From an uncultured Actinomycetes bacterium (GTDB lineage: Bacteria; Actinomycetota; Actinomycetes; Streptosporangiales; Streptosporangiaceae), in the NCBI GenBank assembly GCA_963798675.1, contig CAWCUJ010000046.1, forward strand, positions 55,390-119,389: DNA of 64,000 nt, in the 5' to 3' direction. A model generated the notes under the pieces. That model ran no database searches, was not told the origin of the DNA, and was given only the letters and a program-made list of their open reading frames with translations. Made by a program: the position numbers and the translations under genes. Shown here piece after piece: positions 7,394 through 18,643 of this stretch; positions within the stretch are counted from its first letter, which is position 1, and every line of letters begins with the position of its first letter.

Positions 7394-8002
7394 TTAGGTG
7401 CCCGGCTCGGAGTACCGCGCGGCGATCTGCCGCGCGGTCGCCGAATCCGGGCCCGGCTGCGGCACGAACACCGCTTGCCGGTAGTACCGGAGTTCCTGCA
7501 CGCTCTCCCTGATGTCCGCCAGCGCCCGGTGCCCGCCGTGCTTGGCCGGGGAAGCGAAGTACGCCCGCGGGAACCAGCGCCGTGCCAGTTCCTTGATGCT
7601 GGACACGTCGACCATCCGGTAGTGCAGGTAGGCGTCGAGTTCGGGCATGTCACGGGCGATGAACCAGCGGTCGGTGGCGATCGAGTTGCCGCACAGCGGC
7701 ACCTTCCTGGGCTCGGGGACGTGCCCGCGCACGTAGCCGAGCACGAGGTCGCCGGCCTCGGTCACCGTGATCCCGCCGGACAGCTCGGTGAGCAAGCCGG
7801 AGGAGGTGTGCATCTCGCGGACCACGTCCGGCATCGACTCCAGGGCCTCAGCCGGCGGCTTGATGATCAGGTCAATGCCCTCGTCGAGCAGGTTGAGCTC
7901 GCCGTCGGTCACCAGGCACGCGATCTCGATGAGGGCATCACGTTCGATGTCGAGCCCCGTCATCTCGCAGTCGATCCATACGAGCCGGTCATTCATCCTC
8001 AC
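7394..8002 (-). CDS. orn: Oligoribonuclease
   Basis: LVWIDCEMTGLD (DEDD exo I), CGNSIATDRWF and HRALADIRESV. Confidence 0.9.
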   Translation of the reverse strand: MRMNDRLVWIDCEMTGLDIERDALIEIACLVTDGELNLLDEGIDLIIKPPAEALESMPDVVREMHTSSGLLTELSGGITVTEAGDLVLGYVRGHVPEPRKVPLCGNSIATDRWFIARDMPELDAYLHYRMVDVSSIKELARRWFPRAYFASPAKHGGHRALADIRESVQELRYYRQAVFVPQPGPDSATARQIAARYSEPGT

Positions 8003-8096
8003 AGACTATGACTTCGGCCGCCCTGTCCCGCCAGCAAGAACCTTTTTGGGCCGAACGAACCGGGGTGCGTCGCCGCCCAGATGACTGTGTTTGGTC

Positions 8097-8765
8097 TTAC
8101 CGGGCTTGGGATGCGTCCCTATTCCGCTTGATGTGCTCTGGGGTGGCGATGCCCGGCCGCAGCGCGGCATCGGGCTCCGGTTCGCCGAACCTTACCGTGA
8201 CCGGCACCACGCCCGCCCATCGGTCGGTCGCGCAGTCCTCCGGCTCGTCGGACGGGCCGCCGCTGCGGATCTTGACCGAGGCCTCGGTGAGGGGAAGCGC
8301 GAGGACCGAGGTGGCGGCCAGCTCTTTCTTGGTGGGCTGGCGCGCGTAGGACCACTGCCCGGGTGCCAGGTGTTCGGTGATGACCCGGAGCGCCTCCATC
8401 CGCTCGTCAGCCTCGGTGACCAGCCGGGCCACGCCGAAGATCATGGCGCTGCGGTAGTTCATCGAGTGATTGAACACCGACCGGGCGCAGACCAGCCCGT
8501 CCAGGTGCGTGATGGTGACGCAGACCTCTTGGCCGCCGCCCGCCACGAAGGTCGCGTTCGCCGACGACCCGTGCAGGTAGAGGGCGTCGCCGAGACGACC
8601 GTACGCGGTGGGGAGCACGCGCGGCACGCCGTCGGCGATGACCCCGAGGTGGCAGATCAGGCCGCCGTCAAGCACCGCGTAGAGGTCGTCGCGGTCGGTC
8701 CGGCCACGCTCGTTGTGCCGTCGCAGCACGGTGCGCGGCGTGCTGGAGAGGTCAGCAGGGCTCAC
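8097..8765 (-). CDS. Pyridoxamine 5'-phosphate oxidase-family (FMN-binding split barrel) protein
   Basis: HNERGRTDRDDLYAVLDGGLICHLG...LYLHGSSANA...SMNYRSAMIFG. The ORF-track start 8831 overlaps the upstream gene, so the internal GTG at 8765 is preferred. Confidence 0.7.
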   Translation of the reverse strand: MSPADLSSTPRTVLRRHNERGRTDRDDLYAVLDGGLICHLGVIADGVPRVLPTAYGRLGDALYLHGSSANATFVAGGGQEVCVTITHLDGLVCARSVFNHSMNYRSAMIFGVARLVTEADERMEALRVITEHLAPGQWSYARQPTKKELAATSVLALPLTEASVKIRSGGPSDEPEDCATDRWAGVVPVTVRFGEPEPDAALRPGIATPEHIKRNRDASQAR

Positions 8766-8796
8766 GATACTTACGGTACGCCTGCCGCCCCTGCGG

Positions 8797-9507
8797 TCAG
8801 ACAGCTGCCGCCTGCAGGCCCGAGATCTCATGGGCGGTGCGCGGGCCTAGGCGGATGTGGGCGCCGCTGGTCCGGGCGGGCTCGGGCAGCTCGCGGGTGA
8901 TACGAACGTCGAGGCGAGTGAGCTGGTCGATATCGATGCCGCCTGGGCCGAGGTTGTCGCACTCGGGTACTTGGGAGGCGCCGTAGTGGCCGCCGCGAGC
9001 CCACAGCGCCCGGCTGCGGGGCCTGGCCAGCTGCCGGAACGGGGCCGGCTGCCCGGCCGGCCAGCGCCGCGGGATCTGCCATGAGTCCAGCCAGCCGAGG
9101 ATCGCGGCTAGCCCGATCATCTGGTAGCTCGTGAACGGCTCCCGGGGGGAGCCGAGCACCCCGATCTGGACGCACAGCCTGCCCTCGCGGTTCACGCCCG
9201 CGGGGTGGGACGGCAGCCGGTCCGGCGCGTAGTCCAGGTACTCGGGCATGCCAAGTGCGCAGCCTGCCCGGACGATCGGCATTAGCTGCGCGATGTCACC
9301 AGTCATCGGGTCCCACACCAGGTGAGTTGACCGGTTCTCCTGGTTGAGCCGCTGCGCGGCCGACCAGGCCGATACGACGCGCGGGTCGGCGCCTAGCGTC
9401 AGCCAGACCACCCGCGGTGCTCCACCCCCGAGTTGCCCCCCGTCGGTCTCGGCTCGGATGCATCTGGCGCCCGGCATCCACGCGTCAGCCACAGGGTTGC
9501 CTCCCAC
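8797..9507 (-). CDS. Hypothetical protein, possibly peptidoglycan amidase-like
   Basis: 236-aa ORF. HLVWDPMTGDIAQL, CVQIGVLG and GGHYGASQVPECDNLGPGGIDIDQL loosely recall Amidase_2 endolysin blocks. The function is not established. Confidence 0.55.
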   Translation of the reverse strand: MGGNPVADAWMPGARCIRAETDGGQLGGGAPRVVWLTLGADPRVVSAWSAAQRLNQENRSTHLVWDPMTGDIAQLMPIVRAGCALGMPEYLDYAPDRLPSHPAGVNREGRLCVQIGVLGSPREPFTSYQMIGLAAILGWLDSWQIPRRWPAGQPAPFRQLARPRSRALWARGGHYGASQVPECDNLGPGGIDIDQLTRLDVRITRELPEPARTSGAHIRLGPRTAHEISGLQAAAV

Positions 9508-9623
9508 TGTAGAACGGTCTAGACCTTCTAGCTCCCTTTCACCTGCTTACGTCACCATTGGTGATTAGTCCATAGGTGGCACGTTAAGATTTGCGTTCCA
9601 CACGTTCTACGATTCGGTAGATC

Positions 9624-10766
9624 ATGACCGTGACCAGTACCCCTCCGGGTATTCCCAGCCCCGCGCGGCTGGAAAGCTGGCTCAGCGAGGCCTTGGCCGG
9701 CGAGCCGGCCGAGCTGACGGATATCCAGCTGATCGCGGGCGGCCGGTCGAACCTGACCTACCGCCTGGCCGTCTCGGTGCCTGCTCATGCGCCTGGCGGC
9801 GCGGTGCCTGCTCATGCGCCTGGCGGCGCGGGGCCCGGAGGAGACCGGCTGCTCGTGCTGCGCCGGCCGCCGCTCGGCCACGTGCTGCCCACCGCGCACG
9901 ACATGTCGCGGGAGTTCCGCGTCCTGTCCGCGTTGGTCGGCACCAAGGTGCCGGTGGCCCGGCCGGTAGCGTTCTGTGACGACGCCGAAGTCGTCGGCGC
10001 GCCCTTCTACCTGATGGAGCACGTGCCCGGGGTGGTGCTCAGGTCCCGGCGGGACACCGCCGTGCTGACCGAACCGCAAGCCGCGGAACTTTCCGAACGG
10101 CTGGCCGACATGCTCGCCGCCATCCACGGCGTCGACGTCGAGGCGGTCGGCCTCGACGGGCTCGGCCGCGGTGCCGGATACCTCACGCGCCAACTGAGCC
10201 GCTGGCAGCGGCAGTGGGAGCTGTCCAAGACCAGGGAGGTGCCCGGATACGAGGATCTGGTGAGGCGGCTGACGGCCACGCTCCCGCCCGAAGGCGAGAC
10301 CACGCTGGTGCACGGGGACTTCCGGCTGGACAACGTGCTGGTGACGGTGGCGCCGCAGCCGCGGATCACAGCCGTGGTGGACTGGGAGATGGCTACCCTG
10401 GGCGACCCGCTCGCGGACCTGGGGCTGACCCTGGTCTACTGGACCGACCAGGGAGAGGAAGGCTGGCTCGAACCGGCGCTGGGTTCGGCCGCCCCGGGGC
10501 CCGGCGTGAGAACGGACGGCACCACCAGCCCGGGCTTCATGACCCGGGCCGAATTCGCCGCCGGGTACGCCCAGCGGACCGGGCGGGACATATCCCGGAT
10601 CGGTTATTACGTGGCGTTCGGCTACTTCAAGCTCGCCGTCGTGCTCGAGGGCATCCACGCGCGCTATCTGCAGCGCCAGACGGTGGGCGAGGGCTTCGAG
10701 CAGGAGGGCCTGGCCGTCCCGACGCTGGTCGCCCGCGCACACCAGGTACTCGACGCGGAGGACTGA
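9624..10766 (+). CDS. Phosphotransferase (APH/choline-kinase fold) family protein
   Basis: GGRSNLTYRL, HGDFRLDNVLV and VVDWEMATLGDPLADL. Confidence 0.85.
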   Translation: MTVTSTPPGIPSPARLESWLSEALAGEPAELTDIQLIAGGRSNLTYRLAVSVPAHAPGGAVPAHAPGGAGPGGDRLLVLRRPPLGHVLPTAHDMSREFRVLSALVGTKVPVARPVAFCDDAEVVGAPFYLMEHVPGVVLRSRRDTAVLTEPQAAELSERLADMLAAIHGVDVEAVGLDGLGRGAGYLTRQLSRWQRQWELSKTREVPGYEDLVRRLTATLPPEGETTLVHGDFRLDNVLVTVAPQPRITAVVDWEMATLGDPLADLGLTLVYWTDQGEEGWLEPALGSAAPGPGVRTDGTTSPGFMTRAEFAAGYAQRTGRDISRIGYYVAFGYFKLAVVLEGIHARYLQRQTVGEGFEQEGLAVPTLVARAHQVLDAED

Positions 10767-11109
10767 GCCAGGCTGGCACCCTGCCAGGTGAGGGGGCCAG
10801 CGTTTCACGTCACCTCCAGGCGGCTCACCGCCAGGTGCGGAGCCTCGACAGGACGCCGGCGCCCCGCTCACGCCAGGCCGGAGCCCGGCGCCCCGCTCTC
10901 GCCGGGCCTGCCGCTCGGCTTCCGCCTGCCGAGCTATTTAGAGGCCCGGCGCCCCGCTTACGCCGGACCTCTAAAGAAAGAGACGCGCCACCCCCGCCCC
11001 AGGTTCACACCCGATAAGCCAAAAGAACGCACGCCTGCCCGAAGAGGGGTACGTTGTCACATCCATGCCATTCAGGGGCCACCGGGAGCCGTCCCTGGAC
11101 CGTCCGGGG

Positions 11110-11168
11110 CTATCCGGGCGAAGCGCCGAACAGCGTCGCGACGGCCGAGAGCACGACCGGGGCCGAGC
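11110..11168 (-). pseudogene. Orphan 5' fragment of the DapA-family gene (19 codons, then a stop)
   Basis: Reads SSAPVVLSAVATLFGASPG*. This is the same N-terminus as the intact gene starting at 16444. It is part of the 52-bp repeat at 11120-11171. Confidence 0.6.
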
Positions 11169-13241
11169 TCAGCCCGGACCCCGGACGACGATGTTGAAGA
11201 TCTCCGCCGCGAACCGGCCGAAGCCCGCCGGCGGCAGCTTGGTGAACCAGATCAGCACGTAGCGCCCCGGTGCCGGGCGGGCGGCCGTGAAGGTATAGGT
11301 CCCGCCGACATCGTCGGCCTTCGCCACCGTCCGGAACGTGGACAGGGTCGCGGCGGCCAGCGCGTCGTGGTTGCCGACCTCGACCGACACGCCGGCACCC
11401 CGTGCGGGACCGAACGTGACCGTGACGGAGCCGATCCTGACCTGGTGGCCCATGTCCAGGATCAGGCCCGATCCCTTCTTCAGGCCGCCGAAGACCGAGC
11501 TGCCGAGATAGTACTGGGTCTGCCAGGCGGCAGCCGGATCCCGGTCGATGGCGTCCCGCGCGGCGGCGCTGTTCTCGTTGCCCGGGTTCTCCGGCAGGCC
11601 TTCCAGTGGGTCGAACCCGGCCGCGCCGACCGGCTGGAACACGATGGCCGGCGGGCTCGGCCGGCGGGCGGTCCGGCCGTCGGCCGGTGGCGCCAGGTCC
11701 AGCCGCTCGACAGTCACCCGGCCGGCCTGTGACGGGCGCAGGGCGGCACCGCGGCCCCGGGACGGCAGGACCCCCCAGTGAGCAGCCAGCCCGGCGGCGA
11801 CCAGGAGGGTCACGGCCACGGCTGGGAGCCGGAGGGCGGGACGCCGGCGGGTGACGGCGAGGACCTGGCGGAACGTACTCTGGACGGTGCGCAGCAGGAT
11901 GTACGACAAGCCGGCCATCGGCAGGACGAGCAGCACGGTCGAGATGACGGTGAGCAGTCCGGCGGCGATGTGGGCGTGCCCGAACTGCGTGACGGCAGCG
12001 TGCAGCTGAGCCCGCAGGGAGCCGGCGAAGGTCCGGGCCAGGCTGGGGCCGTTCAGGATGACGAACCCCAGCTGCAGCACGAGCATGGGGACGACGAGCA
12101 AGACCCACACGGTCAGGGCCACCCGGGCCGGGCGCTTGAGCTTGGCCTGCTGGGGATCGGTCGGCCGGCCGGGGATCAGGCTGCGCAGCGTGGGCCCGAT
12201 GCGCCGGAACAGGTCAGGCACGCCGATCAGGTCGGCCAGGATGAAGTACCCGTCGAACCGCAGTGACGGCAGCAGCTGCTGGACGATCTCCAGGTGGATC
12301 AGCACGACGGCGGCGGCCAGCGGCGCGTAGCCGGTGGCCAGGTAGGTGACCGTCAGCGGCAGCACGAAAATCGCGTTGAAGTAGACGCCGCCCAGGTCGG
12401 TGCGGAGGCCGGCCCGGCCCAGCCGGTAGGCGTCGGTGACGTTGGTGAAGAACGCGGGCCAGATCACGTAGATGCCCATGCCGATGACGCCGGGGCGCGC
12501 ACCGCCGTACCGGCAGGCGGCCGCGTGGCCGCACTCGTGAAACAGCATGGAGGCCACGGACAGGCCGAGGACCAGGAGCAGCAGCAGCGGGTGGAGCAGC
12601 ACGTACCGGGACGCGGATCCCAGCCGGCCCCGGCCGAACAGCCAGGTATCCGAGGCGATCAGGGCCGCCAGCACCACGGCCACGGCGAACGGGCGGAACA
12701 GCGGGCGGAACCATCGCGAGAGGAGCTGGACGCCCGCCTCGGGAACGATGGTCCGGCGCAGCTTCAGCGTCAGCAGGGCGGCGTCTTTCCCGGCTTTCCC
12801 GGGCGCTGCGGCGGCCGGATCGGCCGTGGCCAGCATGCCGAGCGGGAAAAGCTTCTTGGCCAGCAGGTACTCGATGTTGCCTGCGCTCACCGGGCGGCCG
12901 AAGCCGCCCGTGACCTGCTCGGCGATCTCGCTAACCGGGCGGCGGCCGTCGATCGCGCTCACGACCAGGTACAGCAGCCGGGACAGGTGCACGACCCGGC
13001 CGTCCGCGTTGCGGACCAGGTAGGTGGCTTCGGTCAGACCCGACCCCTGGTACTCGCCGATCGGCTCCACTGCAGCGGCCAGGCGCGGCACCGCGGCGCC
13101 GATCTCGTCCTGGCCGGGCTGCTCCTGGATCCTCGCGGTGCCGCCGCAGCCCGGCTCGGCGGCGGGGGAATGCAGGTCCCTGAACAGCGGCTGGCGAGGG
13201 CCGCCGGAAGGACGGCCCTCGTCAGAGTGCATGTGGTGCAA
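11169..13241 (-). CDS. Membrane M50-like zinc metalloprotease with a PqqD-like N-terminal domain and a discoidin-like C-terminal domain
   Basis: N-terminus YLVRNADGRVVHLSRLLYLVVSAIDGRRPVSEIAEQV (PqqD/RRE-like). Multi-TM core with HECGHAAA (HExxH) and DGYFILADL. C-terminus ENSAAARDAIDRDPAAAWQTQYY...GSGLILDMG (discoidin-like). Confidence 0.8.
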   Translation of the reverse strand: MHHMHSDEGRPSGGPRQPLFRDLHSPAAEPGCGGTARIQEQPGQDEIGAAVPRLAAAVEPIGEYQGSGLTEATYLVRNADGRVVHLSRLLYLVVSAIDGRRPVSEIAEQVTGGFGRPVSAGNIEYLLAKKLFPLGMLATADPAAAAPGKAGKDAALLTLKLRRTIVPEAGVQLLSRWFRPLFRPFAVAVVLAALIASDTWLFGRGRLGSASRYVLLHPLLLLLVLGLSVASMLFHECGHAAACRYGGARPGVIGMGIYVIWPAFFTNVTDAYRLGRAGLRTDLGGVYFNAIFVLPLTVTYLATGYAPLAAAVVLIHLEIVQQLLPSLRFDGYFILADLIGVPDLFRRIGPTLRSLIPGRPTDPQQAKLKRPARVALTVWVLLVVPMLVLQLGFVILNGPSLARTFAGSLRAQLHAAVTQFGHAHIAAGLLTVISTVLLVLPMAGLSYILLRTVQSTFRQVLAVTRRRPALRLPAVAVTLLVAAGLAAHWGVLPSRGRGAALRPSQAGRVTVERLDLAPPADGRTARRPSPPAIVFQPVGAAGFDPLEGLPENPGNENSAAARDAIDRDPAAAWQTQYYLGSSVFGGLKKGSGLILDMGHQVRIGSVTVTFGPARGAGVSVEVGNHDALAAATLSTFRTVAKADDVGGTYTFTAARPAPGRYVLIWFTKLPPAGFGRFAAEIFNIVVRGPG

Positions 13242-13256
13242 GAACGATCTGCGGGA

Positions 13257-13490
13257 TTAGGAGCCGCCTCCGCCGCCGTGGTGGTGGTGGAAGAAGAAGT
13301 GGTTGTTGAAGCTGCCCACCGCGACGTTGGTCTGCTCGATGTTGACGGCCCGGCTGGACGACAGGGACGCATGGTCAAGAGTGGAGCTGGCGGTGCCCAC
13401 GCTGACGATGGTGATGGTGCCGAGAGTCTCCCGCTCGGGCAGCAGTTCGCCGGTCTCGGCCCGCAGCTCATCGATGCTCAGCTCAGACAT
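13257..13490 (-). CDS. 77-aa peptide (candidate precursor or substrate peptide)
   Basis: The internal ATG of ORF 13257..13571 is preceded by GGAAGAAGGGAAACC. Sequence: MSELSIDELRAETGELLPERETLGTITIVSVGTASSTLDHASLSSSRAVNIEQTNVAVGSFNNHFFFHHHHGGGGGS. It lies 16 nt upstream of the protease gene on the same strand. Confidence 0.6.
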   Translation of the reverse strand: MSELSIDELRAETGELLPERETLGTITIVSVGTASSTLDHASLSSSRAVNIEQTNVAVGSFNNHFFFHHHHGGGGGS

Positions 13491-14357
13491 GATGGTTTCC
13501 CTTCTTCCTATCGAGTGGCCCGATACCGCCCCTTCACGGTTATCGGATAGCACACGCGGCAGATAGGGCAAAATTACGCGCCGCGTGCACGACTTGGGGG
13601 ATCGAAGACAAAGTTCAGGTCGAGTTAAGAAAGATTGAGCTCAGGCTGGCACAAGCTTAATTCGGAACCCAACTCCCCGCCCCTCTATTCGCGTTCGGGA
13701 TCGTGGGACGAACTTAGCTGACCCGCTATGCCATGCAATCTTCTCCGCAGCCGACTTCGGCCTACGTTTTTGTGGATCGTAGGATAAATCTAGCAGACCC
13801 CGCTATGCGGCGCAACCACCCTTCAGCGAATTTCTCAGCACGACGAGTAATTCGGGTCAACCCGGGCCAACCGGGACAGCCTGGCCGACATACTGGCATA
13901 GCGTAAGGGTTTGGCGGGCTCTTTCTCTGTTATGTCCTCGTACTTTACTAGGACAGCGCCGGGCAGCCGGTCACTTTCGCCGAGAACGATTAACACTGAT
14001 TGTCCTGATATTGGCCGACGGGTAAAAAGATCATAAATTCAACACCTCCCAAAATTGCCATTCAACGATGCCCGCCGGGCGTAAACCGGTCGGCTTCCTC
14101 GTGCGGCGTCGCCCAGCGGTTGGACGAAGCGGTGGCCGGTCTCGCCCGTGGCGATAGCGCTGTACGCAGGAGGAATACGCGGCACAAGGCTCGTGAATAG
14201 ACATTGCCTGCCGAACCCGGCAGTTACGACATGACCGGGCAATTTCTATTCGCCTCGTCATCTTGGCGATACCAGATGGACGCCTTCCCGTTTATTCGGG
14301 CCGTTCATACGGAGCGCGCATGGTACGCTGCCGGACACGATTCAGGGAGGGATCACG

Positions 14358-15167
14358 ATGTTGCTCAAAACGAAGCATGGAGTTCGGCGGCTGCGCTCAG
14401 GCGCACTGGCGCTGACGCTGGTGGCGTTCGTTCCGCTGGCCATTCCAGTCACCGCATCGGCGAGCACGAATCCGGCCTATCCGTTCCCGGGAAATTATCC
14501 CGGCCACCCCCAGGGAAACGAGTTCGTCAACGTCGTACGCGCGGATTCCCAAACGAATCAGAAGACCGTCTTCAAGGTGAAGTTCAAGCTGGGAGTGGGG
14601 CTCAGCCCGACCATCAGCGCCGTCAATCGCGCGGTGGCGCTGGCCAGCCACTGCGCAGATTGCCATGCGATCGCGATCGGATTCCAGGTGGTGACCACGA
14701 CGGAGCGAGATCTCACCGCCATCCACGCCCTCAATGTGGCCAGCGCGTCAACTAAGGACTGCACCCTGACCTGCTCGGCCGTCGCCGATGCGTACCAGGT
14801 GGTCGTCGCTACCGACACCCCGCAGCCGATGAGCTTTGGTTGGCTGCTGGGCCAGCAGCAGCTGGCCGCTCTGCTCAACCTGCGGTCGGAGTTCCTGGCC
14901 CTGCCGAAATCCGGCCTCAGCCTGGCCCAGATCCAGGCCAAGTGCCAGGACCTCGTGAACGAGGCCGTGGCCATCCTGCAGGACGGGAACGACGGGGGTC
15001 CGGGCTACCCGGGCTACCCGGGCTACCCGGGCTATCCGGGCTTCACTACGCCCACGTATTCCCCGGGCGTGCACGGTGCCGAGTCGGACACCCGGCTGAC
15101 CGACGACGGCCAGCGGGTGGTCCACCTGTACCGCGACCTTCAGTTCCGGCCGTTCTCGGCCGGCTGA
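14358..15167 (+). CDS. Secreted hypothetical protein with twin Cys motifs and GYP repeats
   Basis: Signal peptide (LALTLVAFVPLAIPVTASAST). Paired motifs SHCADCHAIAIGFQVV and KDCTLTCSAVADAYQVVV. A GPGYPGYPGYPGYPGF repeat. RBS GGGAGGGA upstream. Confidence 0.75.
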   Translation: MLLKTKHGVRRLRSGALALTLVAFVPLAIPVTASASTNPAYPFPGNYPGHPQGNEFVNVVRADSQTNQKTVFKVKFKLGVGLSPTISAVNRAVALASHCADCHAIAIGFQVVTTTERDLTAIHALNVASASTKDCTLTCSAVADAYQVVVATDTPQPMSFGWLLGQQQLAALLNLRSEFLALPKSGLSLAQIQAKCQDLVNEAVAILQDGNDGGPGYPGYPGYPGYPGFTTPTYSPGVHGAESDTRLTDDGQRVVHLYRDLQFRPFSAG

Positions 15168-15209
15168 GGTCGCCGCGGTTAAAGCGGCAACCGGGGCCAT
15201 CCCCGGCAT

Positions 15210-15320
15210 CACCGGCCCCGGCCAGGACGGCTACCACGACACCAGCCCCGGCCAGGACGGGCTACCACGACACCAGCCCCGGCCAGGACGGGCTACCACG
15301 ACACCAGCCCCGGCGACACC
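15210..15320. repeat. Tandem 31-nt repeat, about 3.5 copies
   Basis: caccagccccggccaggacgggctaccacga is repeated head-to-tail with no spacers. Confidence 0.85.
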
Positions 15321-15446
15321 GACCCCGGCCAGCCTCCCCCGCCCGAGGTTCACGCCCGGCGGGGAAAAGCACGCATGAACGTGGCAGCCTGCCCGAAAGA
15401 GCGGTGTTTTCCAAGTCCCACACCGGTTATGGCGGCGCGGCGGGCC

Positions 15447-15537
15447 GGCTCGATGTTCCATCGAGCCGCCCAGAGCCGGCTCAGTGTTCCATCGAGCCGC
15501 CCAGAGCCGGGCCGGATCAGTGTTCCATCGAGCTGGC
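15447..15537. repeat. Three tandem 31-32-nt hairpin-forming units
   Basis: ggctcgatgttccatcgagccgcccagagcc x3. The first unit contains a perfect 9-bp stem, ggctcgatg/catcgagcc. Confidence 0.8.
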
Positions 15538-15607
15538 TAGGAGGCGGCACGGTGCCACATCCATGCCGTCTCGCGCGGGGCCATCCCGGGCGGCGGCCGC
15601 CGGGGGT

Positions 15608-16444
15608 TCAGGCGAGGAGGGCAGCGACTTCGGCGGCGATCGCGGCGGCGGTGTCCGGGTCGGGGGGATCGACGGTCATCCGGGCGGCCGTGCTGGCCAG
15701 GCCGCGCACCCGGAGCGCGTGCTTGATCCGGCCGATGCTGGCCCCGAGCGCGACGATCCGGTCCAGCCGCGCCTGCTCCCCGGGCTGATCACGAAGGGCC
15801 GCGTAGACCTCGGGGTAGGCGGAGCTGCGGCCGGAGATCACGCCCGCGCAGCCAGCCCGCATCGCCGCCGCCGGGTTGGCGTCGTTGCCGGAGAAGATCG
15901 CCAGGCCGGGCGCCGCCGCGACGTAGCCGGCCGCCTCGGCCGAGGCGGACCCGCTGACCTTGGCGCCTGCCAGCCCCGCCGCGTCCGCCACCTGCGCAAA
16001 TAGCGGCGGGGGGACGTGCAGCCCGGTCCGTTCGGGAAAAATATAGGCATAGAGCTCGGGACCGGGGGCGGCGTCCCGGATGCGCCGGTAGTGGCTGATC
16101 AGCTCATCGGGGCGCGCGGGCAGGTAGTAAGGCGTGATGGCGGCGATGCGTCTGGCGCCGAGCGCGGCCGCCGCCTGGGCCAGCCGGCTGGCGTGCCGGG
16201 CGTCCGGGGCGCCGATGTGCGCGATCACCCGATCCGGTCCCGCCTCGGCCAGCGCAAGCTCGAACAGCGTCAGCCGTTCGGAATCCTCCAGGGCGGGGAA
16301 CTCGCCGCTGGTCCCGGCCACGAACAGGCCGTCTACCAGCCCGGCGACGAGCTTGTACAGCGCACGGTTGGCGTCAGAATCCAGCTCGCCTGAAGCGCCG
16401 AACAACGTCGCGACGGCCGAGAGTACGACCGGGGCCGAGCTCAC
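15608..16444 (-). CDS. Dihydrodipicolinate synthase (DapA/NAL) family lyase
   Basis: GLFVAGTSGEFPAL, ITPYYL and AGAKVSG. GTG start overlapping the upstream stop (GTGA). Confidence 0.85.
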   Translation of the reverse strand: MSSAPVVLSAVATLFGASGELDSDANRALYKLVAGLVDGLFVAGTSGEFPALEDSERLTLFELALAEAGPDRVIAHIGAPDARHASRLAQAAAALGARRIAAITPYYLPARPDELISHYRRIRDAAPGPELYAYIFPERTGLHVPPPLFAQVADAAGLAGAKVSGSASAEAAGYVAAAPGLAIFSGNDANPAAAMRAGCAGVISGRSSAYPEVYAALRDQPGEQARLDRIVALGASIGRIKHALRVRGLASTAARMTVDPPDPDTAAAIAAEVAALLA

Positions 16445-17052: not shown

Positions 17053-17877
17053 ATGACGGAGAAGACCCCCGCGGGCACCGCGGTGCCGATGGCTCGATCG
17101 GCGCCGCTGACCCCGCTGACCCCGCAGGCTGCCCGGCTGCAGCGCTGGGAGATCATTTGCGTCTTCGCCGTCTCGCTCGGCGCCAGCGGCCTGTACGCGG
17201 TGGTTAATTTCATCGGCTCGCTGACCGCGCACCAGTCGCTGGGCAAGCAGACCGCTGTGCTCAACGGCTCGCTGGCCCCCGGCCGCCCGCTGCTCGACCT
17301 GAGCCTGCAGTTGCTGAACATCACCTTGTCGCTGGCCCCGGTGCTGCTCGTGTTCTACCTGCTGGCCCGGGCGGGGGAGGGACCGTCCTCGATTGGCGTG
17401 GACTTCCGCGAGCCGGGCCGGGATCTGGCCCGGGGCGCCGTGCTCGCCGCGGTCATCGGCGGCAGCGGCCTGGGCCTGTACCTGATCGCGTATCACATCG
17501 GCGTCGAACTGAACGTGGTGGCGGAGAACCTGCCCGCCATCTGGTGGCGGATCCCGGTGCTGCTGCTTTCCGCGGCCCAGAACGCCGCCCTGGAAGAGGT
17601 CGTCGTCCTCGGGTACCTGATGAGCAGGCTAGAGAAGCTCGGCGTCAGGCCGTCGAGGGCGATCGCCATCAGCGCGGTGATCCGGGGCTCCTATCACCTG
17701 TACCAGGGGGCGGGCGCGTTCATCGGCAACGCCGTCATGGGCGCGATCTTCGGCGTCCTGTACCGGCGGTGGGGCCGGGTGACTCCGATGATCATCGCGC
17801 ACTTCCTGATCGACGCGGTGACCTTCGTCGGCTACGCGCTCCTCGCCGGTCACGTGTCCTGGTTGCCCAAGCCATGA
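17053..17877 (+). CDS. CPBP-family intramembrane glutamic endopeptidase
   Basis: AAQNAALEEVVVLGYL (EE motif), RGSYHLYQ and IIAHFLIDA. Confidence 0.85.
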   Translation: MTEKTPAGTAVPMARSAPLTPLTPQAARLQRWEIICVFAVSLGASGLYAVVNFIGSLTAHQSLGKQTAVLNGSLAPGRPLLDLSLQLLNITLSLAPVLLVFYLLARAGEGPSSIGVDFREPGRDLARGAVLAAVIGGSGLGLYLIAYHIGVELNVVAENLPAIWWRIPVLLLSAAQNAALEEVVVLGYLMSRLEKLGVRPSRAIAISAVIRGSYHLYQGAGAFIGNAVMGAIFGVLYRRWGRVTPMIIAHFLIDAVTFVGYALLAGHVSWLPKP

Positions 17878-17890
17878 GGGAGCCGCCCCC

Positions 17891-18643
17891 ATGACGGTGC
17901 TCGCCCGGCTCTGGGACAGGGTGTCGGGCAGCCAGCCGCTGCCGCCGGCCTGGGTGATCGGCCTGACCGGGCTGCTGGCCATTGTCGTCGTGCTTGACGC
18001 GCGATCCTGGCGGCTGGCCGGGAAGGTCATCACGATCGCGCACGAGGGCGGCCACGCGCTGGTCTCCGTGCTGTCCGGGCGGCGGCTTGACGGCATCAGG
18101 CTGCACGCGGACAGCTCAGGGGTGACCTACTCCCGCGGCCCGTGGCGGGGCCCCGGCCTGGTGCTCACCGCGGCGGCCGGCTATGTCATGCCGTCGCTGC
18201 TTGGCGCGGGCGCCGCGGGGCTGCTGGCGGCGCGGCACCTGACCGCGATGCTCTGGCTCGCCCTGGTGCTGCTGGCCGCGACGTTCCTGGCCGTCCGCAA
18301 CCTGTACGGCGCGATCGCGGTGCTTGTCACCGCGGGCGCGGTGGTCGCGGTGAGCTACTACGCCACGGCCGTCGTGCAGGCCGGGTTCGCCTACCTGGCC
18401 GCGTGGTTCCTGCTGTTCGGCGGGGTGCGCCCGGTGCTCGAGCTGGCCAGGGGCTCTTTGGGTCGACGCCAGCGCTGGACGCGGGGCTCCGACGCCGACC
18501 AGCTGGCCCGGCTGACCGGCACCCCGGTCGGCCTGTGGATCACGCTGTTCGTGCTGGTGTCGGTGGCCGCCCTGATCATCGGGGCCGGGCTGCTGCTGCC
18601 GCCCGGCTGGCACCCTGGCATACACTCCGGTTTGCATTCCTGA
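17891..18643 (+). CDS. M50B-type membrane metallopeptidase-like protein
   Basis: ITIAHEGGHALVSVLSGRRLDGIRLHADSSGVT plus multiple TM spans. Confidence 0.8.
   Translation: MTVLARLWDRVSGSQPLPPAWVIGLTGLLAIVVVLDARSWRLAGKVITIAHEGGHALVSVLSGRRLDGIRLHADSSGVTYSRGPWRGPGLVLTAAAGYVMPSLLGAGAAGLLAARHLTAMLWLALVLLAATFLAVRNLYGAIAVLVTAGAVVAVSYYATAVVQAGFAYLAAWFLLFGGVRPVLELARGSLGRRQRWTRGSDADQLARLTGTPVGLWITLFVLVSVAALIIGAGLLLPPGWHPGIHSGLHS

Follow-up and report, generated by a model that had tools for sequence, protein, structure and literature searches.

A leader-bearing small peptide and an RRE-fused intramembrane protease as a probable two-gene peptide-maturation module of Actinomycetota

A 64,000-nucleotide (nt) stretch of contig CAWCUJ010000046.1 (positions 55,390 to 119,389 of the forward strand; assembly GCA_963798675.1), from an uncultured bacterium of the Streptosporangiaceae and referred to here as the window, carries on its reverse strand a gene for a 77-residue peptide followed by a gene for a large membrane metalloprotease. 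We conclude that these two genes probably form a peptide-maturation module of the leader-peptide type known from RiPPs (peptides that are ribosomally synthesized and then modified post-translationally), the small protein being the precursor and the protease an intramembrane leader peptidase guided by its own RiPP recognition element (RRE). A sequence-only reading of the window had proposed a peptide-processing pair here, and that proposal is supported by the co-occurrence of the two genes, the leader/core pattern of the peptide, the predicted RRE fold and the homology of the protease. The coordinates of all features are collected in Table 1.

The linkage of the two genes was examined at 79 genomic loci that contain the protease, 60 of them actinobacterial, using a hidden Markov model of the peptide against six-frame open reading frames (ORFs). 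Of the 60 actinobacterial loci, 50 have one to four peptide genes next to the protease gene and on its strand, often as two to four in tandem, which is the co-occurrence of small ORFs with this protease architecture that the earlier reading had named as a check. The peptide genes are usually located 15-400 nt upstream of the protease gene, and in Nakamurella one lies upstream and three lie downstream of it. Ten loci have no same-strand peptide gene: one has a divergent peptide gene and one a remnant, two start at a contig edge, two include less than 1 kb of upstream DNA, and four appear to be true absences. The nearest relatives are metagenome-assembled genomes of Streptosporangiaceae and of uncultured Actinomycetes. 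At the Gandjariella thermophila locus (L020), three paralogous RRE-protease genes (7632-9125, 9464-11287 and 14052-15770) are present within 8 kb beside two peptide genes, which suggests a local expansion of the system in this cultured thermophile. Besides G. thermophila SL3-2-4, the cultured strains with the system include Amycolatopsis taiwanensis DSM 45107, A. pithecellobii RM579, A. pigmentata CGMCC 4.7645, Frankia nepalensis CN4, Modestobacter excelsi 1G6 and Nocardioides donggukensis.

The good ribosome-binding site ascribed earlier to the 77-residue ORF is borne out both by the sequence GGAAGAAGGGA ahead of its ATG and by its relatives, since 56 of 61 family peptide ORFs have a Shine-Dalgarno-like motif, as against a background of 14.5% for arbitrary ATGs. 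The same reading placed the end of the small ORF 16 nt before the large one; adjacency and shared strand hold, but the gap is 15 nt if the protease starts at the TTG at 13241 and 24 nt if it starts at the in-frame ATG at 13232, and the 687-residue length of the database copy of the protease (P0001) fits the latter. The small and large ORFs are mutually in frame, with a stop codon in the read-through.

Conservation of the small ORF, a further check named beforehand, is confirmed by 69 close homologues, several of them on contigs equal in length to contigs with protease homologues, and by a broad family profile that recovers at least 2049 clusters (90% identity), every one of them unnamed or 'hypothetical' and lacking a Pfam domain, from sources that include Nocardioides, Jiangellaceae, Jatrophihabitans, Pseudonocardiales and Mycetocola. 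Among the close homologues the first 24 residues are near-invariant (MSELSxDELxAETGELLPERETLG) and the remainder is variable; M1, S2, E3, L4, S5, L9, E12, E15, L16, L17, P18, E19, R20, E21 and L23 are invariant in that alignment, L9, L17 and P18 are invariant across the whole family, and (E/D)LLPxRExL is common to all of the peptides found, the core motif of the window peptide's leader being ELLPxRExL. The leaders of the family are acidic (mean net charge -4.3), and with a near-invariant acidic N-terminus followed by a variable C-terminus the small ORF behaves as a precursor made of leader and core, in line with the leader-like appearance noted at the outset. The cores are near-neutral, with a median length of 42 residues (range 25-56), rich in Ala, Asn, Ser, Val and Gly, almost without Lys and Glu, and mostly not transmembrane-like. 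That of the window peptide is about 53 residues long, near-neutral, rich in Ser, Thr, Val and Asn, and His-tailed, with Ser as its C-terminal residue; the peptide has neither a transmembrane segment nor a Cys, and its sequence and composition, including the aromatic/His/Gly tail, had been correctly described. Its unmodified core has a computed monoisotopic mass of 5445.63 Da if the peptide is cut after Gly24 (T25-S77), and of 5502.65 Da for G24-S77. The family thus has what is generally expected of RiPP precursors, namely a conserved leader, a variable core and a gene, often in several copies, beside that of a leader-recognising enzyme.

Codon comparison bears on whether the small ORF is a gene at all. 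Leader codons compared among 15 loci differ 582, 316 and 888 times at the first, second and third positions, the third being the most variable, and of the 1377 codon pairs that differ 656 (48%) are synonymous and 721 non-synonymous. These synonymous changes argue against a conservation confined to DNA or RNA, and as judged from the alignments the small ORF is a real gene under protein-level constraint. Small ORFs are frequent in GC-rich DNA, and the window, with a GC content of 68.7%, has many overlapping spurious ones, so it might be supposed that this one arose by chance in a GC-rich intergenic region and that the protease acts on other substrates; given thousands of homologues, a conserved position and strand relative to the protease, the substitution pattern and the frequency of Shine-Dalgarno-like motifs among the relatives, this explanation is effectively refuted.

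No Pfam or NCBIfam model matches any of the peptide variants tested, and the leader strings did not occur in the literature searched. The cores of many clades have a loose N.A.A.N...A.A.Q.I.V scaffold in common, and those of others are Cys-, Gly- or His-rich. His-rich tails, including HFFFHHHHGGGGGS, HMHHHMHHHMHH, WHHWFHHHGGG and H9, recur in cores of the Streptosporangiaceae clade (window positions 13260-13310, and loci L002, L014 and L016) and are absent from other clades; metal binding by these tails is possible. By eye the cores resemble chaplins or curli, but this likeness was rejected as unsupported, ten diverse peptides giving no Pfam match even at E <= 10. An amphipathic beta-strand periodicity likewise found no support, as the hydropathy autocorrelation at lag 2 does not differ from that of shuffled sequences (z = 0.3) and the alternation is seen only in conservation.

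The protease family comprises 826 clusters (50% identity, E <= 1e-30) that share residues ~50-470 and have variable C-terminal extensions. The window protease is matched by the NCBIfam models NF041824 (daptide intramembrane metalloprotease; E 2.4e-24, residues 71-381, model positions 16-328 of 379) and NF058609 (YydH/LiaK; E 3.8e-8, residues 223-339), and all 74 of 74 diverse relatives match both, the best E-value with NF041824 among them being 3.4e-39. By these profile matches the membrane core is homologous to the RiPP intramembrane leader peptidases DapP and YydH. The structure of residues 45-500 was modelled with AlphaFold (AF2) from a 131-sequence alignment (pLDDT 92.5, pTM 0.88), which raised the confidence of the membrane core from the pLDDT of 55 seen in a run with a shallow alignment.

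In this model the N-terminal domain adopts an RRE fold of the PqqD-like winged-helix type, with its elements in the order beta-beta-beta-alpha-alpha-alpha (strands 59-63, 74-77 and 83-86; helices 88-96, 103-114 and 120-131; pLDDT 91-98). The top Foldseek matches of the model in the PDB are the lasso peptide RRE protein TbiB1 with its leader (5v1u/5v1v) and PqqD (5sxy), with probabilities of 0.84-0.93 and a TM to target of 0.60. Of the earlier suggestion of a PqqD/RRE-like N-terminal segment, the fold therefore stands, but a Pfam match to PqqD is not obtained, the isolated domain giving none with PF05402 at E <= 1; there is a weak match of the protease to NF050149 RiPP_bind_ApyI (E 0.022).

Site-2 proteases (S2Ps) bind their metal through HExxH and a distal NxxPxxxxDG motif that supplies the third ligand. 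In the window protease HECGH lies at the end of a hydrophobic segment (residues 214-232), inside an AF2 helix (218-245) directly followed by a beta-hairpin, and the distal motif is present as Q322-x-x-P325-x-x-x-x-D330-G331. Across 131 diverse relatives there is no variation at H235, E236, G238, H239, D282, P325, R328, D330, G331, D337 and G340, and hardly any at Q322. The M50-type HExxH core in a multi-transmembrane body that had been read from the sequence is upheld in its motifs and its membrane-embedded body, but not as a Pfam M50 match; among the relatives, PF02163 (Peptidase_M50) gives weak matches in 13 of 74, the best with E 4e-4.

The third part of the protease, described earlier as an extracytoplasmic discoidin-like domain, has that fold according to Foldseek, which retrieves CBM32, F-lectin and discoidin structures with E-values of 1.3e-5 to 1e-4 and a TM to target of 0.47-0.64, all of the galactose-binding-like beta-sandwich type. 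The domain has weak profile matches to 1k12 and 2v72 and scores 22.4 bits with PF22633, below the cutoff of 27.8, and homologues of the protease carry PF00754/PF22633. Its location is predicted to be extracytoplasmic, since a loop with six Lys or Arg and no Asp or Glu (residues 444-473) lies ahead of the last transmembrane helix, so that the C-terminal domain should face outwards. In an Agromyces sp. locus (L045, 9932-12334) and also in L054, a MinD/ParA-type P-loop ATPase (AAA_31/CbiA, E 9e-10) replaces CBM32 as the C-terminal extension, so that in this protease family the module is swappable between extracytoplasmic and cytoplasmic types.

Table 1. Features of the peptide-protease locus in the window (positions are those of the window)
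Feature	Position (nt)	Strand	Evidence or remark
Candidate precursor peptide gene, 77 residues	13257..13490	-	ORF, ATG at 13490, homologues, leader/core pattern
Leader, residues 1-24	13419-13490	-	
Putative core, residues 25-77	13260-13418	-	
Stop codon of peptide gene	13257-13259	-	
Shine-Dalgarno-like GGAAGAAGGGA	13498..13508	-	7-17 nt 5' of peptide ATG
RRE-fused intramembrane HExxH metalloprotease with C-terminal CBM32	11169..13241	-	690 residues from TTG 13241
Predicted RRE (PqqD-like winged helix), residues ~55-135	12837..13079	-	AF2, Foldseek, NF041824 span
Membrane core, residues ~168-492, about 8 transmembrane helices	11766..12740	-	hydropathy, AF2, invariant residues, NCBIfam
HECGH, residues 235-239	12525-12539	-	
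QxxPxxxxDG, residues 322-331	12249-12269 (PxxxxDG)	-	
CBM32 / F5-8 type C (discoidin) / F-lectin-like domain, residues ~535-690	11172..11639	-	Foldseek, profiles
Divergent secreted protein, 269 residues, four invariant Cys (C99-x2-C102, C135-x3-C139)	14358..15167	+	signal-peptide-like N-terminus
Two copies of ~41-60-nt non-coding element, core TAGC-N6/7-GCTA then TGC..GCAAT	13698..13815	+	repeat finder
16-bp GC-rich hairpin, between convergent protease and APH-family kinase genes	10937..10975		RNA fold

The closest parallel is with the daptides, whose clusters were discovered through an architecture in which an RRE is fused N-terminally to an intramembrane S2P that removes the leaders (Ren et al., 2023, doi 10.1101/2023.03.08.531785; PMC12338566). 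The leaders of daptides are short acidic segments, rich in Leu and Glu, that run up to the cleavage site (doi 10.1101/2023.03.08.531785; PMC12338566). The present system shares with MpaP/DapP and MpaA/DapA an RRE-S2P protease, small precursor genes that are often in tandem, and a short acidic Leu/Glu-rich leader with a motif abutting the core. It is nevertheless different in many respects. The window protease scores 86.2 bits with NF041824 against an equivalog cutoff of 300, and in this clade it is about 300 residues longer, with extra transmembrane helices and the external CBM32; the leader motif is ELLPxRExL rather than ELExMEAP; none of 48 family peptides ends in Thr, which is invariant at the C-terminus of daptides; and the cores, of 25-56 residues and Asn/Ser/Ala/Val/Gly-rich, contrast with the aliphatic, helical ones of daptides. 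The flanks of the window pair have no genes for DapB (DUF-RRE), DapC (an oxidative decarboxylase of the Fe-ADH type), DapD (aminotransferase), DapM (methyltransferase) or the DapT1/T2 transporter, and none of DapB, DapC, DapD and DapM is conserved across the 60 actinobacterial loci. We therefore reject assignment to the daptide class, as every class-defining test (motif, C-terminal Thr, DapBCDM and equivalog cutoff) failed; on these comparisons the protease family is a sister of the DapP family and not its equivalog.

In epipeptide systems (YydFGHIJ / EpeXEPAB), similarly, an intramembrane M50-type protease (YydH/EpeP), to which the NF058609 match points, takes the leader off a small ribosomal peptide. 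They are, however, systems of Bacillota, whereas the present one belongs to Actinomycetota, and neither the radical SAM epimerase nor the ABC transporter is adjacent or conserved here; with a score of 33.3 bits against a cutoff of 225, and with no radical SAM or ABC exporter gene, membership in the epipeptide systems was likewise rejected. The M50 protease EpeP is thought both to cleave and to export its peptide, and a similar double role would explain a cluster without a transporter. With the S2Ps of MEROPS family M50 (RseP, SpoIVFB and mjS2P) the window protease has in common an HExxH in a transmembrane helix, a following beta-hairpin and a distal (N/Q)xxPxxxxDG, but it has no PDZ or CBS domain, no Pfam M50 match and no Foldseek S2P match, and where the classic S2P substrates are transmembrane anti-sigma factors the proposed substrate here is a soluble leader peptide recruited by the RRE. 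A further parallel is provided by TMcin clusters, in which TmcP (DUF3267, of the S2P clan) cleaves off a ribosomal peptide's leader at the membrane, and which also encode a CxxC protein; the distal Asp and Pro are conserved in that clan (PMC13252029). The pairing of an S2P-clan intramembrane protease with a ribosomal peptide, and the encoded CxxC protein, are common to both systems, but TmcP (PF11667) has four transmembrane helices and no RRE, the TMcin precursor is a transmembrane helix with two Cys whereas the window peptide has no Cys and no transmembrane segment, and the staphylococcal TMcin clusters include an ABC transporter and a DsbA-like oxidoreductase.

Conservation of the gene neighbourhood was assessed by clustering all ORFs of 90 residues or more within +/-10 kb at the 60 loci. 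The protease is the only universal cluster; that nothing else is universally conserved with the pair agrees with its earlier description as minimal. The remark that no tailoring enzyme or ABC exporter is adjacent also proved correct, there being, within about 8 kb of the window pair, no gene for a radical SAM, YcaO or Lan enzyme or for an ABC exporter. ABC exporters were considered as partners and rejected, the Amycolatopsis ABC protein being of the ABC-F type and the others distant or clade-specific. The flanks of the window pair encode an APH-family kinase, a pyridoxamine-oxidase-like protein, a DHDPS-family protein, an Rce1-like/CPBP protein, an M50B peptidase, an IclR regulator, an amidase and a cysteinyl-tRNA synthetase (CysRS), and these genes have no homologue near the pair in other loci, with the sole exception of an APH-like match some 4 kb away in one Amycolatopsis locus. 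The Rce1-like/CPBP gene (17053-17874, + strand) and the M50B-like gene (17891-18640, + strand) were examined as immunity or processing partners and set aside, since at no other locus does a homologue of either lie close to the pair; this membrane-protease pair, 3.6-5 kb from the peptide gene, probably consists of unrelated chance neighbours.

The neighbourhood also bears on the alternative that the peptide belongs to a full RiPP pathway, with tailoring enzymes encoded elsewhere in the genome and the protease performing only the last step, so that the real product would be a peptide with modifications, belonging to a class either known or new. The protease homologues DapP and YydH do act after tailoring, RREs are normally found in modification pathways, and in other clades the pair is adjoined by a helix-turn-helix (HTH) regulator or by SARP-like or LuxR-like regulators, the latter two typical of secondary-metabolite clusters. 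Against this, the +/-10 kb examined at the 60 loci, which come from many families, contain no conserved tailoring gene, unlinked tailoring genes are uncommon for RiPPs, and both the daptide hallmarks (C-terminal Thr and DapBCDM) and the radical SAM epimerase of epipeptides are absent. We regard this alternative as unlikely.

A different function would be signalling by regulated intramembrane proteolysis, in which the external CBM32 would respond to a cue from the envelope or from a glycan, whereupon the protease would cut the small cytoplasmic protein, this acting as a regulator or signal and not as a secreted product. Signalling is the classic task of S2P/M50 proteases, the C-terminal module is in some clades external and lectin-like and in others a cytoplasmic MinD/ParA-type ATPase, a variation like that of sensor or regulatory modules, and transcription regulators are adjacent at many loci. 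The classic S2P substrates are, however, transmembrane anti-sigma factors, and the peptide has no transmembrane segment; tandem arrays of two to four divergent paralogues with conserved leaders and variable cores are typical of secreted peptides and not of regulators; the pair has no conserved neighbour of the sigma or anti-sigma type; and the closest characterised homologues of the protease are RiPP leader peptidases. A signalling role thus seems very improbable.

The divergent gene for a secreted four-Cys protein is, among the neighbours in the window, the one with a recurrent association. The presence of this secreted CxxC protein had been noted from the sequence, correctly, but its treatment as an unrelated neighbour did not hold, as it adjoins the pair in 21 loci from at least two clades, in divergent upstream, same-strand upstream and downstream arrangements; it is the place of this protein that the regulators take in other clades. 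The protein has its four Cys in two similar units, N.A.A....CxxC.A.AIAFQVV and NVA.A....CxxxC...ADAYQVVV, and a linker of PGY repeats; it has no Pfam or NCBIfam family, and is a probable accessory component in the close clade. A strand motif shared between this protein and the peptide core was sought and rejected (hhalign probability 4.5%). The sole hhalign match is between residues ~180-198 of the four-Cys protein (14895-14950; SGLSLAQIQAKCQDLV) and residues 2-20 of the peptide (SELSIDELQAETGELL), and is not significant.

The intergenic region between the two divergent transcription units contains the repeated motif reported earlier, which exists and belongs to a larger imperfect direct repeat of ~41 nt (13698-13738 and 13774-13815); the copies are 76-77 nt apart, at 208-325 nt upstream from the ATG of the peptide gene, and the 10-nt repeat core recurs in inverted orientation at 13894-13903. 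The element is also found 226-370 nt upstream of the peptide gene in loci L001 (two copies ~76 nt apart), L016, L050 and L084/L085, with a 7-mer background for the search of 0.047 per kb, and Rfam gives no match for this region or element. It is probably an operator or promoter that serves both the divergent CxxC gene and the operon of peptide and protease. At the other end of the operon, the hairpin beyond the protease gene (-31.9 kcal/mol; z = -2.9 relative to shuffled sequences) is probably a bidirectional transcription terminator; it is without a U-tract, so terminator function is inferred.

From these features we infer how the proposed precursor and peptidase would work together, including leader binding, cleavage site, topology, export and the lack of further modification. 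The 77-residue product would be a cytoplasmic precursor whose acidic 24-residue leader is bound by the RRE domain of the protease. Binding would bring the junction that directly follows the conserved motif, around Leu23/Gly24, to a zinc site of the S2P type on the cytoplasmic side of the membrane, formed by H235, H239 and D330 with E236 as the general base, and the leader would be removed there. The core of about 53 residues would then be let go into the membrane or through it, perhaps with the protease itself as the exporter, as proposed for EpeP. At the cell envelope, the external CBM32-like domain and the secreted four-Cys protein are probable partners of the peptide, acting either on it or with it. 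As a working guess, the mature peptide is bacteriocin-like or envelope-associated. A bolder version would make the RRE-protease the sole maturation-and-release machine of a large actinobacterial family of unmodified leader-tagged peptides, with the RRE purely gating proteolysis and export, the neutral, Asn/Ala/Ser/Val-rich cores, with their loose N.A.A.N...A.A.Q.I.V scaffold, acting at the envelope (for example by self-assembly or docking), and the CBM32 domain and four-Cys protein as extracellular partners; taken in all its parts, this is a doubtful proposition that we hold to be quite unlikely.

Several observations weigh against a leader-peptide maturation module. The protease occurs without a detectable peptide in about four loci. 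No exporter or immunity gene is conserved in the 60 loci, which leaves the fate of the product unexplained. The cores are not fully hypervariable, a loose N.A.A.N...A.A.Q.I.V scaffold being present in many clades, and this shared scaffold might indicate a function in structure or assembly instead of a classic antibiotic. The RRE fold matches, though ranked first, have weak E-values (about 0.4-0.7). Pfam shows neither PqqD nor Peptidase_M50 in the window protease even at E <= 1, so that both assignments rest on structure, motifs and NCBIfam homology, and no solved S2P structure is among the top 50 Foldseek matches of the model despite its pLDDT.

To our knowledge, the one RiPP class for which an RRE-guided intramembrane leader peptidase has been described so far is that of the daptides, whose multi-enzyme pathway ends with it. 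The same type of enzyme, with a leader motif of its own, appears here to be the sole enzyme conserved in a system found widely among Actinomycetota. Should the peptides be unmodified, the system would represent a new and simple route to leader-dependent peptides and would offer peptide engineering a small, transferable pair of leader and protease; should they be modified in trans, it would represent an undiscovered RiPP class. Either way, the analysis provides a testable annotation for thousands of 'hypothetical' small ORFs and of 'putative peptide zinc metalloprotease' genes, and the presence of the system in several cultured strains makes experiments practical.

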